A stretch of DNA of 64,000 bases from Candidatus Gastranaerophilales bacterium (GCA_944324175.1 CALUVH010000010.1:2166-66165); one strand, 5' to 3'; counted from the stretch's first letter, positions 17,187 to 20,842 are shown. Numbers and translations: made by a program. Notes: generated from the sequence alone by a model not told the origin.

Positions 17187-17873
17187 ATGATAAATAATAG
17201 AATGAACGAAGGCGTTGGAAAAAAAATCGTAGAAGCGCTAAAAAAACAAAATGATATTGAAATTATCCCAATTAGTGAAGATACCCCAGACGAATTTGAA
17301 ACTGAAAATTCACATAGCAATTCATTAGAAGATGAAGCTCTTGATATGGGTTTTGGAGAAGAAGCTGAAATTGTTGAAGAAAATATCTATAATCAAGATG
17401 TTGAAATATCTCAACCTACAATTCAGCAACAAAATGTTCAAGCAACATTTACTGCCCCAAAATTTGAAAGTCAACCAAGCATGGGCTTTTCACAACCTCA
17501 GATGAATATTAATTCAACACCTTCAATAAACACAACTCAAAATTTTGCAAAAGATTTGGATGATTTTGAAGTACCAACAAATGTTGCCGTGCTAAAACAA
17601 CTTATTTCACAACTGCCTACAGGAGTCACAAAACAAACCGGAGCTCAAATTATCAGACAGACTATGGAAGCTCTCGGTATTTCTATGAAAAGTGTGCTAC
17701 AAGAAGCTCAACAAGTTCAAGAAGGAATAAACAACTCCTCAAGAGAATGTCAAGCAAACATTATGGAATATAAAAGACAAATTGTCCTACTTGAAAATCA
17801 AGTACAAAAATACACAAGACAATCAGCTGCCCTAAATGATATAATTAGTCTTTTCATTCAAACAGGCAACTAG
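17187..17873 (+). CDS. hypothetical acidic / Gln-rich protein with helical C-terminal domain
   Basis: 228-aa ORF followed by a strong terminator. No signal peptide and no assignable motif. Confidence 0.5.
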   Translation: MINNRMNEGVGKKIVEALKKQNDIEIIPISEDTPDEFETENSHSNSLEDEALDMGFGEEAEIVEENIYNQDVEISQPTIQQQNVQATFTAPKFESQPSMGFSQPQMNINSTPSINTTQNFAKDLDDFEVPTNVAVLKQLISQLPTGVTKQTGAQIIRQTMEALGISMKSVLQEAQQVQEGINNSSRECQANIMEYKRQIVLLENQVQKYTRQSAALNDIISLFIQTGN

Positions 17874-17896
17874 ATATTTTATTTATGCTTAAAAAA

Positions 17897-17920
17897 ATAA
17901 CGCCTTTTTTTCGGCGTTAT
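17897..17920. terminator. bidirectional intrinsic terminator
   Basis: Stem ATAACGCC / GGCGTTAT (17897-17904 and 17913-17920) with an A-run upstream and a T-run downstream, between convergent genes. Confidence 0.7.
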
Positions 17921-17923
17921 TTT

Positions 17924-18247
17924 TTAATATTTGAATGAATGTTCAATATTCTTGTCTATTACACCTTTAGCTGACTCAATTTCTGTTTCTACTGCCTTCA
18001 ATCTGTTTTGATACTGAGTCATCTGCATATCTAGCTGCTGCTCAAGAATTTTTAATTTCGCTTGTCTTTGTTGAAGAGTTTTTACTATAGGAGAATCCGG
18101 ATCATAATCATTACCAACGGACATCAGCTCATTAGTCGATTGCATCAATCCCATTTTGGATTGCGTAATCAACTGAATCTTATACTCCAAATCCGCCTTG
18201 GACTGGATAAGATATTGAAGCCGCATTGTTGCTACAAGTATGCCCAT
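17924..18247 (-). CDS. hypothetical 107-aa helical-hairpin protein, paralog of the termini of the 414-aa protein
   Basis: The N- and C-terminal segments align with those of the 19598-20842 product (C-terminus TEIESAKGVIDKNIEHSFKY vs TEMEAVKKVIEKNIESTFKTFE). Confidence 0.5.
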   Translation of the reverse strand: MGILVATMRLQYLIQSKADLEYKIQLITQSKMGLMQSTNELMSVGNDYDPDSPIVKTLQQRQAKLKILEQQLDMQMTQYQNRLKAVETEIESAKGVIDKNIEHSFKY

Positions 18248-18259
18248 TGATTTTTCCCT

Positions 18260-18532
18260 TTATCTGGTTTCGTTAAGATGACTACCTTTCAGGAAACTAT
18301 GCTGGTTGTTCTCGGCTATCAACTGCTCCATTTTATGAAACTGATGACGGTGATAATTTAGCCTGTACTGTGCCATCTTTAACTTCTTTTTCATAGTAAG
18401 AAAATCTTTCAAACCATCAACTATCGAATTAGCTAACGCTTTTATAGGATTTTTCCTTATTATGAAATTTCTCGAATATATTAAAAAGTCTATCAACCTT
18501 TTTATATTCATCTCTAAAGTTTCACGAAGCAT
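18260..18532 (-). CDS. hypothetical basic helical protein (90 aa)
   Basis: ORF 12 nt upstream of the 107-aa gene on the same strand. No motif recognised. Confidence 0.4.
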   Translation of the reverse strand: MLRETLEMNIKRLIDFLIYSRNFIIRKNPIKALANSIVDGLKDFLTMKKKLKMAQYRLNYHRHQFHKMEQLIAENNQHSFLKGSHLNETR

Positions 18533-18683
18533 TTTTCTCCTTTATCAACTTTAGACCTACATATAATAAAACCAGCCTTTAGCAATTATTGCCATGTTTT
18601 CATAGGCTTCTTAACATGTCTTAATCATGCTGCAGATCTAAATTTTCACAGTACATGGATTCTATACTTTACATTTTATAATA

Positions 18684-18722
18684 CGATAAAAGTCGGCTCA
18701 AACTTTAACTCACAAGCCAACT
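18684..18722 (-). terminator. probable intrinsic terminator after the Gly-rich protein gene
   Basis: The minus-strand stem AGUUGGCU / AGCCGACU (one G-U pair) is followed by a T-rich run. Confidence 0.45.
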
Positions 18723-18757
18723 TTATCACTTTTTGTAATATATTTTTACATAAAATA

Positions 18758-19573
18758 CTACAAGTTTTGAATTGCTTTACTATCACCGTCAATTGATTCT
18801 TTAAGCATTTTTTTAACAACATCACCTTGTGTATCAAGCATTTTACAAACTGTTTCAATATTTCTAACCTTATTAGAAAGTATAGTATCGGCATTTGCAG
18901 TAATATTACCTGTAACTCTTTGATAAGCTGCTAATGCAGAAGAAGTTGTACCTTGCATTAAGTTACCCATAACCAATGCAGGAAGTCCGTATTCACCCAA
19001 ATATGGAGCAGCAGCTTGCATAATACCACCCCAACCGGAAATCACACCAGCTAAAGGTAATACTATATTTTTAGCAAAAAATCCATAACCATTTGCAGCA
19101 CCAACCCCATAAGCAGCAGCACTAGCAACATCTGCAATTCCACCAATACCAGAAGCATAACCGGTAGCAACACCACTATCTGAACCCCATCCTAAAATAC
19201 TTGCAGCTCCACCTGTTGCACTTCCACTTAATCCCCAAGAAATCGGTGCTGCTCCACCTGGAAATCCTGAATAATTATATAAAGAATCTATGCCAAAAGA
19301 GGTTCCTCCCGAAAAATTGGAATAATAAGAGGTACCAGGAACATTCATAGAATCTGACCCACCAAATACTGTCGCAAAAGATGACGGTGCTAACATACTT
19401 GCCAAACTATATAAAAATCCGCCAGTCGCTTCAAAACCGGTTCCTTGACCGCTTCCTGACACAGTTATGTCTCTCAACTTGTCATAAGTTTCAAATAACA
19501 TTGCCTTTGCATCACCGCTTGCGGAGCCAAATTTATTCGCTATTACTAAATAACTGTCATTTTTATAAGCCAT
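18758..19573 (-). CDS. hypothetical Gly/Ser/Ala-rich protein (271 aa)
   Basis: Long low-complexity core (GFPGGAAPISWGLSGSATGGAASILGWGSDSGVATGYASGIGGIADVASAAAYGVGAANGYGFF) flanked by ordinary N- and C-terminal segments. No signal peptide. It lies 24 nt downstream of the 414-aa gene. Confidence 0.55.
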   Translation of the reverse strand: MAYKNDSYLVIANKFGSASGDAKAMLFETYDKLRDITVSGSGQGTGFEATGGFLYSLASMLAPSSFATVFGGSDSMNVPGTSYYSNFSGGTSFGIDSLYNYSGFPGGAAPISWGLSGSATGGAASILGWGSDSGVATGYASGIGGIADVASAAAYGVGAANGYGFFAKNIVLPLAGVISGWGGIMQAAAPYLGEYGLPALVMGNLMQGTTSSALAAYQRVTGNITANADTILSNKVRNIETVCKMLDTQGDVVKKMLKESIDGDSKAIQNL

Positions 19574-19597
19574 AATAACCTCTTACTTATTCCATCA

Positions 19598-20842
19598 TTA
19601 TTCAAATGTTTTGAATGTAGACTCAATATTCTTTTCAATAACCTTTTTAACTGCTTCCATTTCTGTTTGCAACGCATCTTGTTCTGTATCAAGTTGTCTT
19701 AGACGCAACTCAAGAGTCCTATCCTGTTCTTGGATTTTTTCGGTCTTTGCGTTGATATCTTGAATAGCTTTTTCATATACTTCTCTTTCATAATTGTATT
19801 GATTCATTGCATCTTGATAAGCAGCTTCATCAGTTATTGTCTCTGTCTTAAGCGTATAAGTCAATGAAGAATCTTCATATCTTATACTCTGCGCACGACC
19901 TTGATCATCAAAGTCTACAAACGCTTTTTCTGTACGCTCAATTTTAGTTTTAACATCTTGCGCATTATAATATGTCAGTTTATCTTGATTTTCTGAAGGT
20001 AGCGCAGGATCAATACCTGAAATTGCACTTGCATACAAATCTTCTTGACAAGCAAAGTAACGTTTACCTTGATATTCCCAAGTATAAATCTGATCATCAT
20101 CAGCATTGGCAAAGACAGCATCAGGAAAATCTTCTTTTATCTGTTCAACAGCTGCTTTTTGTTCTTCATCTGTAGGATCATAAGCTGAAACCTCACAATT
20201 TCCTACATATGTTGGAACATCCGGTTGTACATAATAATCCTTTATATTATCAGTTCCTGCCAATTGCGTCTTATCAAAAAAGTGCATTACATTGTCATCA
20301 TCTTGGTAAAAACCAATATTCGCCGGATCTACAAGTTCAAAATCAGGATATTCTTCATAAATCTGAGACAAGCTATCTTTTTGAACATTATTTAATGGAT
20401 CGTAATCTTGTACTTCCTTTCCATTTATCGTATACTCACCACTCACAGGATCCTGCACAATATTAGCTCGATCAACCACACCCTCAGTAGGCTTCAGACC
20501 CATAACTACCTGAGGATTAGATTTTTTTGATTGAATACCTGTAAACACGTCAGAATAATGATAATGAGTAACTAAATAATTATATTCCGGATCATCATAT
20601 AACGCCGTCATATCAGTAATTGTTTCACCTGTCGTGCCATCCTCATAACTATACTGCAACGTAGTATAATCACTGGTACTAGGCGCTGTTGGAACTTCTA
20701 ACGCCAACAACTCATTAAATGTATTAGCACTTTGATTCGCCAAAGCCGTACGCGCTTGGTTAACCTGCTGACCTTCGTATTCTACATTCGTTTTCCTAGC
20801 AGTCAGTGCCAAATATCTCGCTTGTGAAGCTGCCATACCCAT
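19598..20842 (-). CDS. hypothetical 414-aa protein with conserved coiled terminal helices around an acidic/aromatic insert
   Basis: N-terminus MGMAASQARYLALTARKTNVEYEGQQVNQ and a heptad-like C-terminus (...RLRQLDTEQDALQTEMEAVKKVIEKNIESTFKTFE). SD GGGAG lies 9 nt upstream of the ATG. Confidence 0.6.
   Translation of the reverse strand: MGMAASQARYLALTARKTNVEYEGQQVNQARTALANQSANTFNELLALEVPTAPSTSDYTTLQYSYEDGTTGETITDMTALYDDPEYNYLVTHYHYSDVFTGIQSKKSNPQVVMGLKPTEGVVDRANIVQDPVSGEYTINGKEVQDYDPLNNVQKDSLSQIYEEYPDFELVDPANIGFYQDDDNVMHFFDKTQLAGTDNIKDYYVQPDVPTYVGNCEVSAYDPTDEEQKAAVEQIKEDFPDAVFANADDDQIYTWEYQGKRYFACQEDLYASAISGIDPALPSENQDKLTYYNAQDVKTKIERTEKAFVDFDDQGRAQSIRYEDSSLTYTLKTETITDEAAYQDAMNQYNYEREVYEKAIQDINAKTEKIQEQDRTLELRLRQLDTEQDALQTEMEAVKKVIEKNIESTFKTFE

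Follow-up and report, generated by a model that had tools for sequence, protein, structure and literature searches.

A Gastranaerophilales protein family with conserved terminal helices and a variable middle, encoded in a conserved four-gene cassette with a possible link to flagellar export

Results

We analysed a stretch of 64,000 nucleotides (nt) from a Candidatus Gastranaerophilales bacterium (GCA_944324175.1 CALUVH010000010.1:2166-66165; hereafter the window), in which an earlier note, made from the sequence, had singled out five open reading frames (ORFs) as a candidate for an undescribed system. Gastranaerophilales are widespread, uncultured relatives of cyanobacteria that live in the gut and do not photosynthesise. 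We reproduced all five ORFs, with the coordinates and termini that had been claimed for them. Four are encoded on the minus strand: a long protein with conserved terminal helices (A414), a Gly/Ala/Ser-rich protein (B271), a small basic helical protein (C90) and a short relative of A414 (D107). The fifth, E228, is convergent with them (Table 1). On one side the locus is flanked by valS and the S1 gene, on the other by purH and the dCMP deaminase gene; its base composition is that of its surroundings. Computed values agree with the compositions described earlier: the net charges of A414, C90 and E228 are -44, +9 and -17, respectively; B271 contains 16% G, 13% A and 11% S; and E228 contains 11% Q. 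The proteins had also been said to lack signal peptides, and a sequence-window scan of all five found a single, marginal candidate for a signal-peptide-like or membrane-spanning stretch, in B271; the hydrophobic Gly-rich segment of that protein reaches a maximum Kyte-Doolittle score of 1.49.

Table 1. Positions of the genes and features discussed in the text, counted from the first nucleotide of the window.
Feature	Position	Strand	Basis or details
A414, long terminal-helix protein	19598-20842	-	ORF, AlphaFold2 model, homologs
B271, Gly/Ala/Ser-rich protein downstream of A	18758-19573	-	ORF, homologs
C90, small basic helical protein, first gene of the C-D unit	18260-18532	-	ORF, charge
D107, minimal helical-hairpin paralog of A	17924-18247	-	ORF, BLASTP, hhalign
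E228, convergent acidic/Gln-rich protein	17187-17873	+	ORF; neighbour in one sub-clade
Promoter region of the A-B unit	20885-20936	-	GCCGTATAAT at 20927-20936, then TTGACT-N16-TAATAT at 20885-20912
Sigma-28-like promoter, B-C intergenic	18679-18707	-	Degenerate window copy: TAAAGTTT-N13-TCGTATTA
C90 leader, ~95 nt	18533-18625	-	Invariant blocks TTAAGACATGTTAA ... GCAAT ... GTTTT(A/T)(A/T)TATACATGTAGGTCTAAAGTGTAAGGAG
Diverged flagellar type III core cluster	7925-13863	-	FliE, FliF, 340-amino-acid ORF, FliH, FlhA (Pfam)

A414 and D107 are paralogs with conserved ends

The central claim of the earlier note was that the proteins of 414 and 107 amino acids (aa) share both of their termini. We found that this similarity is significant by BLASTP, both at the C-terminus (expectation value (E) 2e-7, with 37% identity over 54 residues) and at the N-terminus (E 3e-4). 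A profile-profile comparison of the A and D families with hhalign likewise matched the C-terminal helix at E 3e-6 with a probability of 88%. Over the last 20 residues of the two proteins we counted 12 identities on the quoted strings, compared with the earlier estimate of 11 of 19. As judged by sequence, A414 and D107 are true paralogs that are related through both terminal helices.

The AlphaFold2 model of A414, built from a 38-sequence alignment (mean predicted local distance difference test score (pLDDT) 87.8; predicted template-modelling score (pTM) 0.51), contains an N-terminal helix at residues 2-47 and a C-terminal helix of 75 residues at 339-413. The middle of the modelled protein is made up of long beta-hairpins at 60-123 and 289-337, with two alpha/beta modules in between. 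These modules, each of ~65 aa, constitute an internal repeat (E 1e-6), and relatives of 506-599 aa carry one or two additional copies (alignment A1, of close relatives; 1-4 copies overall). Sequence conservation follows the same division. Among the close relatives, identity is 95% in the N-terminal region (residues 1-55), 54% in the middle and 87% in the C-terminal region (residues 336-414); among representatives at 50% identity (alignment A2), the corresponding values are 68%, 22% and 57%, the middle being effectively unalignable. The pattern of conserved ends around a variable middle, which had been noticed by inspection, thus holds quantitatively. Nearly every member of the family begins, from residue 1, with MGMAASQAR(F/Y)LxLTARKTNVEYEGQQINQ... 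and ends with ...QDRTLELRLKQLDTEQxALxTEMxAVKKVIxKNVESTFKTF; KNIESTFKTF is also seen at the C-terminal end.

Sizes vary broadly as well: 112 full-length representatives of the A family measure 292-861 aa, and other members have 1,074 aa and 1,741 aa (L047:3444-8666; loci examined in this work are cited by such L numbers). When 64 diverse family members and the 10 longest were compared with Pfam, no recurrent domain appeared; the sole find was a type I dockerin in the variable middle of the 593-aa protein P0349 (residues ~244-330, E 2.9e-13). Dockerins are extracellular modules. The 1,741-aa member and the other largest members contain no domains recognisable by Pfam. P0349 and the L047 protein illustrate how freely the middle of the A family accepts modules.

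D107, by comparison, is formed by two helices, N- and C-terminal, with the invariant turn G-x-D-Y-D-P-x-S-P between them (alignment A6), in keeping with its original description as two helices joined by a loop. Its sequence is that of an A-type hairpin from which the insert is missing. The D-like branch also has a long member, the 442-aa product of L071:1935-3260.

The family is large, unnamed and restricted to one lineage

The earlier note had termed the locus an orphan operon. In a database clustered at 90% identity, we found more than 4,137 homologs of A414, and a profile search of the A family returned at least 2,441 clusters at 50% identity with E <=1e-3, 535 of them with E <=1e-30. There are 130 homologs of D107 and 1,268 of B271, with identities of 75-96% among the best 120 listed for the latter. 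With homologs in the thousands, the locus cannot be called an orphan in the sense of being rare; the homologs are all unnamed, bearing no designation other than 'hypothetical protein'.

Scanning GTDB with each species represented by one genome, we found at least 502 coding stretches, and we examined the best 80 of these (76 loci) by reading the ~17-kilobase (kb) loci around the matches. All 76 loci, like all 79 loci kept in total, come from gut metagenome-assembled genomes of the Gastranaerophilales/Melainabacteria type, a few of which carry obviously wrong bin labels, and the A/D superfamily is restricted to the Gastranaerophilales lineage. Several assemblies contain at least two A paralogs each, and many A paralogs are scattered solo genes in unrelated housekeeping contexts.

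Comparison of the window proteins with Pfam, NCBIfam and PHROGs gave, for all five, only sub-threshold coiled-coil noise, with weak matches to APG6_N, PspA and the like (E ~0.1-0.2). D107 weakly resembles one PHROG family of unknown function (E 0.0018), and A, B, C and E have no PHROG match. No sequence relatives were found in PDB with a single sequence, with the A2 profile or with the A6 profile, and a Foldseek search of the A414 model against PDB and BFVD returned nothing significant (best template-modelling score (TM) 0.13-0.2). We dismissed as noise the resemblances of A414 to cytolysins, to PA14 and to tail proteins. The A/D family thus matches nothing described by sequence or fold search, as had been supposed from the absence of any familiar motif, and no characterised family, the finding named in advance as a possible refutation, claims either the 414-aa or the 107-aa protein.

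One family member lies on an IMG/VR contig. This protein (L080:4541-5551, 337 aa, MGLSASQARFLNLTARMHDIEYK...) has as neighbours an ORF that resembles N-acetylmuramoyl-L-alanine amidase and two large ORFs, and a sigma-28-like motif of the kind described below lies upstream of it. The contig could represent a prophage border or could have been mis-called as viral. The company of an amidase and phage-like ORFs, together with the BFVD matches to PA14 and tail proteins (E ~1e-2), would be expected if the genes were a phage-derived or mobile cassette encoding, for example, tail-fibre-like or tape-measure-like proteins. We regard this origin as highly improbable and close to refuted: L080 is the single family match in 2.9 million viral contigs, four of the five proteins lack a PHROG match, and the genes show stable chromosomal synteny among housekeeping genes with no anomaly of composition.

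The A-B-C-D cassette is conserved

In close relatives, the gene order is valS, S1, A, B, C, D, convergent E, purH and dCMP deaminase, continuing after the last of these with, in some cases, a pilin-like gene, then FliE and FliF. We found that A-B-C-D is also kept where the flanks are entirely different (L059, L062, L064, L068, L069, L071, L072 and L076-L078). Thus, the conservation of the neighbourhood in relatives, which the earlier note had proposed as a check, holds for the A-B-C-D order in close and distant relatives alike. E228 is syntenic in 22 loci; it does not accompany A-B-C-D in the distant loci (L059-L078), and a hidden Markov model did not find it there either. Because E228 is missing there, we conclude that the conserved unit is A-B-C-D and that E228 is a clade-specific neighbour. 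The 228-aa protein had been described as closing the locus; lacking linkage in distant loci, it was rejected as a component of the system.

Within the cassette, B271 follows A in the loci examined and is highly conserved over its N-terminal ~40 aa and its C-terminal ~100 aa. Its AlphaFold2 model (pLDDT 37) has no fold and contains terminal helices only, the C-terminal one at 212-270; on this model, B271 is probably largely disordered or dependent on a partner for folding. C90 occurs in 41 loci and in each of them directly precedes D107. By analogy with flagellin and needle systems, C90 is a candidate chaperone or regulator.

The constant presence of B271, with its hydrophobic Gly-rich segment, beside a protein with a variable middle raises the question of whether A proteins are surface adhesins or effector- or toxin-like proteins that leave the cell by a non-flagellar route, for example through a system that includes B271, with the conserved termini acting as a secretion or anchoring module. 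The dockerin-bearing member would suit such a role, as would the faint resemblance of the beta-rich part to cholesterol-dependent cytolysins (Foldseek E ~2e-3, TM 0.13). We consider this explanation improbable, since Foldseek gave no significant match (TM at most 0.16), no non-flagellar secretion-system genes lie nearby, and the minimal hairpin D107 carries no cargo.

Sigma-28-type promoter motifs precede C90 and some A paralogs

Upstream of C90, at a distance of 120-190 nt, 35 of the 41 loci contain the sigma-28-like motif TAAAG(T/A)TT-N11-13-(G/T/A)CCG(A/T)(T/A)A, and the motif is kept in clades that otherwise differ in intergenic sequence and in flanking genes. The classical consensus for sigma-28/SigD (FliA) is TAAAGTTT-N11-GCCGATAA, and the B-C intergenic motif corresponds to it in form. 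As a calibration, we looked upstream of a flagellin gene of L066, canonical as judged by phmmer (E 3e-37 against Hag), and found TAAACTTT-N12-GTCGTTAA, a promoter of the same type. The background frequency within 260 nt upstream was 8 among 721 other ORFs; over the same distance, the motif precedes 6 of the 81 A paralogs, and it is missing from all 110 B, D and E genes. In L044, L052 and L069, solo A paralogs have it at a distance of 36-40 nt.

Other genes that follow the motif encode lytic-transglycosylase-like, lysozyme-like and HD-GYP proteins and the long D-like paralog of L071; judged by their sequences, genes behind this motif may outline a late flagellar regulon of the order. Several of these genes were characterised by eye (L046:3345-4271, L051:4558-5436, L018:12667-15531, L020:2416-3663 and one ORF in L068). 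Two appear to encode lytic-transglycosylase-like proteins, one a 955-aa protein with a lysozyme-like C-terminus and one an HD-GYP protein; the L068 ORF (412 aa, at ~1236, minus strand) has a Gly/Ala-rich hydrophobic region reminiscent of B271.

Upstream of A, the main-operon loci keep a different arrangement, a conserved GCCGTATAAT followed by TTGACT-N16/17-TATAAx, which by its sequence is a strong sigma-70-type promoter. The decamer GCCGTATAAT stands ~15 nt upstream of the TTGACT -35 box and is kept across these loci; in L009, L011 and L015, it also forms the -10-like part of the sigma-28-like motif that precedes C90. Because of this double occurrence, the A-B unit might have a second promoter of FliA or hybrid type.

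The C90 leader (alignment A5; L001-L078) contains two or three ACATGT palindromes, and in distant loci one pair of these flanks a TATAAT-like box. A structured RNA family was considered and rejected, as the leader has no Rfam match and is conserved at the level of sequence without obvious covariation. Its sequence looks more like an operator or protein-binding site than like a structured RNA.

A diverged flagellar gene cluster lies nearby

The earlier note had placed flagellar export genes close to the locus, and Pfam confirmed the order FliE-FliF-x-FliH-FlhA in a core cluster that starts 3.6 kb away with FliE (13495-13863). In one clade, the main operon lies 3-6 kb from this set of genes. The ORF at the position of FliG (340 aa, 10752-11774, minus strand) has no Pfam or NCBIfam match at E up to 1, and the FliF and FliH proteins of the window score well below the NCBIfam curated cut-offs. 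There are no further flagellar genes in the rest of the 64-kb window, and no secretion-system genes near the locus besides the flagellar ones. The strong divergence of this core cluster fits the reduced flagellar gene sets that have been reported for Gastranaerophilales. Many members keep only FlgB/C/F/G, FlhA/B, FliE, FliI/J and FliP/R, and lack the genes for hook, junction, flagellin, cap and motor (PMC4040986, supplementary table). About 25% of Gastranaerophilales genomes contain a full flagellar set, while ~75% retain a subset for which a role in extracellular secretion has been postulated (bioRxiv 10.64898/2026.04.24.720558). Flagellated members have canonical flagellins (PMC3787301).

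Two of the loci we examined, L066 and L026, also encode canonical flagellins; in L026, the flagellin gene has an A paralog as its immediate, divergently oriented neighbour. L056 contains an A paralog that is convergent with flgG-flgA-flgH-flgI-(rod-binding)-x-flgN-flgK-flgL. Apart from two or three such immediate adjacencies, we rejected an enrichment of flagellar genes around solo paralogs, and a Pfam census of 96 neighbours of solo paralogs found housekeeping genes only. The link between the family and flagella rests on the promoters and on some adjacencies, which is better evidence than proximity alone.

Comparison with known filament, needle and coiled-coil proteins

The proposal that these proteins are designed like flagellins is supported as far as their architecture is concerned. 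The A family does have conserved terminal helices around a hypervariable, domain-inserting middle, without a signal peptide, and it shares with flagellins the presence of multiple scattered paralogs per genome. A sigma-28-type motif precedes some members, while A414 in the window has a promoter of sigma-70 type. Homology to flagellins, however, is not detectable: neither A414 nor D107 matches Flagellin_N (PF00669) or Flagellin_C (PF00700) at E up to 1, while the same Pfam library recognises the FlgL-like protein of L056. The terminal helices of the A family are also much shorter (~47 and ~75 aa) than those of flagellin domains D0+D1, which measure ~140 and ~90 aa, and no form of flagellin comparable to the bare-hairpin paralog D107 is known. 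Because canonical flagellin, FlgK and FlgL coexist with the A family in the same order, and because profile comparisons are negative, we conclude that the A family is none of these three. Its role as a replacement for any of them was rejected for at least some genomes, in which the canonical proteins share its loci.

FlgK, FlgL and FliD nevertheless resemble the A family in having terminal coiled-coil helices and a beta-rich variable head, an architecture generally known for these three proteins; they are expressed late, under sigma-28, and a sigma-28-type motif precedes some A paralogs. One A paralog adjoins flgK-flgL. The question arises whether the A and D proteins are true parts of the flagellum in flagellated Gastranaerophilales, for example a lineage-specific filament cap comparable to FliD, a protein of a sheath or of an accessory filament, or a second class of flagellin; the operon in the window would then be a remnant or a re-used part rather than a separate appendage. 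The sigma-28-type promoters common to the family and to flagellin would be explained in this way, as would the A paralogs that are convergent with flgK-flgL and divergent from flagellin, and FliD is encoded in none of the loci examined, which represent a small part of each genome. Several observations make this explanation unlikely. Genomes contain many A paralogs, whereas cap and junction proteins, like FlgK, FlgL and FliD generally, are normally single-copy, and the cassette is strongly kept in a clade whose flagellar cluster appears degenerate in FliG, FliF and FliH. Moreover, the A and D proteins have no match to FliD_N, FliD_C, Flagellin_N, Flagellin_C or Flg_bb_rod. For FliD (PF02465 and PF07195) this holds in Pfam, and Foldseek did not retrieve FliD structures from PDB; for Flg_bb_rod (PF00460) and Flg_bbr_C (PF06429), both domains were found in the FlgK and FlgG proteins of L056 but not in A414 or D107. 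The canonical FlgK and FlgL of L056 are recognised by Pfam, whereas the A family is not.

D107 also invites comparison with the needle and filament subunits of type III secretion systems (PrgI/MxiH/YscF; EspA), which have small chaperones (YscE/YscG). Its ~100 aa form a helix-turn-helix hairpin, the turn being of the Pro-x-x-Pro type (DP[DE][SN]P), and it shares a transcription unit with the small helical C90. The existence of decorated and undecorated paralogs likewise recalls the pairing of filament and needle. No injectisome genes are present, however, and the basic C90 differs from known needle chaperones, which are acidic. Needle homology of D107, which the DP(D/E)(S/N)P turn and a C-terminal D-x-x-I-x-x-x-F-K had brought to mind, was rejected on the negative hhalign result, and D107 found no needle protein either among Pfam families or in the PDB profile search with alignment A6; what D107 has in common with needle subunits is limited to the hairpin and its DPxSP turn. 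Nor is D107 a candidate WXG100/ESX protein: its turn (GNDYDPDSP) contains no WXG, and Pfam reports no WXG100 match.

A third point of comparison is offered by reduced flagellar export systems, which have been proposed to act as secretion machines in Buchnera and in ~75% of Gastranaerophilales genomes. The window carries a diverged FliE-FliF-x-FliH-FlhA set in which FliG is unrecognisable. No substrate has been reported for such systems; here, promoters and neighbourhood suggest a connection between the family and the apparatus.

Finally, crescentin and the cyanobacterial coiled-coil-rich proteins (CCRPs) share with the A family long heptad-like helices, the lack of a signal peptide and generic coiled-coil matches. 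A cytoplasmic scaffold or cytoskeletal element of this kind (an intermediate-filament-like protein such as crescentin or a CCRP, or a polar landmark), assembling inside the cell by way of the terminal helices and perhaps organising the flagellar or pilus pole, would be consistent with the weak APG6_N and PspA matches, with the lack of transmembrane segments, with a position among housekeeping genes (valS, S1, purH) and with the fact that cytoplasmic proteins, too, belong to sigma-28 regulons. We judge such a role to be distinctly unlikely. Crescentin and the CCRPs are coiled coil over most of their length, whereas two-thirds of A414 is beta-rich, hypervariable and globular. A hypervariable middle that duplicates its modules, together with many paralogs per genome, is what one typically sees in surface-exposed proteins under diversifying pressure rather than in internal scaffolds; a dockerin is present in one member; and conservation of the first residues (MGMAASQAR) would be unusual for a cytoskeletal coiled coil.

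Discussion

Our results describe a superfamily whose design is a variant of the principle by which type-III-exported filament proteins combine conserved helical termini with a variable outer domain. The reading that we tentatively favour, and to which we assign slightly less than an even chance, is that the A and D proteins belong to the late flagellar regulon and constitute a new class of type-III-exported, self-assembling proteins, in which the termini would assemble and the middle would be exposed; export and polymerisation are proposed by analogy. We favour this reading because of the terminal-helix architecture, the variable and module-duplicating middle, the extracellular-type dockerin in one member, the scattered paralogs, the lack of signal peptides and transmembrane segments and the strongly acidic character of A414. 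A second set of observations points in the same direction, namely the sigma-28-like promoters, the adjacencies to flagellin and flgKL, the nearby flagellar core and the published reduced gene sets.

According to this model, A and D members, which have no signal peptide, would be exported by the flagellar type III apparatus. Once outside, they would join through their terminal helices to form a polymer or a cap, on which the variable middle of the A proteins would be exposed. D107 could serve as the undecorated core, an adaptor or a junction subunit, and C90 as its small cytoplasmic partner, either a chaperone or an autoregulator. B271, co-expressed and disordered, would act as a scaffold or as a co-substrate.

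A more specific version of this proposal holds that the A/D superfamily is the cargo or filament of the relic flagellar export apparatus kept by most non-motile gut Gastranaerophilales. A basal body that lacks hook, flagellin and motor would then export the hairpin subunits and polymerise them into a surface appendage, with hypervariable tip domains facing host and phage; we consider this version possible, if on balance doubtful. We know of no described substrates of the reduced flagellar export sets of Gastranaerophilales, and the A/D superfamily provides a testable candidate for what the retained apparatus exports. If the relic-apparatus proposal is true, then a flagellin-like filament protein was invented independently on a flagellar type III secretion system, and the family represents a new class of type-III-exported, self-assembling surface proteins without detectable homology to flagellin. 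It would also explain why relic flagellar genes are retained, and would point to a surface antigen of hypervariable sequence in a lineage of the human gut. If the proteins are cytoplasmic instead, they would constitute a new, lineage-specific coiled-coil system under flagellar-type regulation.

A number of our findings weigh against export and self-assembly. With respect to structure, no homology of the A and D proteins to any PDB sequence or fold was detected, and the pTM of the A414 model (0.51) gives only limited confidence in a packing of the two terminal helices against each other. In hhalign comparisons, alignment A1 scored a probability of only 0.3% against a flagellin/FlgL alignment, and alignment A6 one of only 0.2% against a needle alignment of manually entered sequences. 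With respect to regulation, the A-B unit of the window has a promoter of sigma-70 rather than sigma-28 type, and the window's own copy of the sigma-28-like motif before C90 is degenerate. Sigma-28 regulons also include cytoplasmic proteins, and membership of such a regulon is thus no proof of export. With respect to genomic context, flagellar genes occur near solo paralogs in ~5 of ~45 loci, close to a rough estimate of chance, and, given the canonical flagellin, FlgK and FlgL of some relatives, no vacant structural role is apparent.

Other observations in the window

Two proteins of the window contain a prepilin-type N-terminal cleavage/methylation motif (14175-15293, minus strand, and 3643-4656, plus strand), the first of which also has a weak Lcl_C-like C-terminal domain. 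Pilin-like genes recur near paralogs of the A family (L005, L013, L039, L041, L050, L052 and L073), and this recurrence may reflect the plain abundance of such genes in these genomes.

Between valS and the S1 gene lies an ORF of 111 aa (22284-22619, minus strand) that has no family match; homologs of 94-98 aa occupy the same position in L006, L008, L014 and L037.

Farther along the window, at 47085-57518, is a lipid cluster of the aryl-polyene type that comprises two ketosynthases, a ketoreductase, ApeP-like and ApeI-like dehydratases, an AMP-binding enzyme and an MMPL-like exporter, and that adjoins biotin genes (BioG/BioF-like) and genes for lipopolysaccharide glycosyltransferases.

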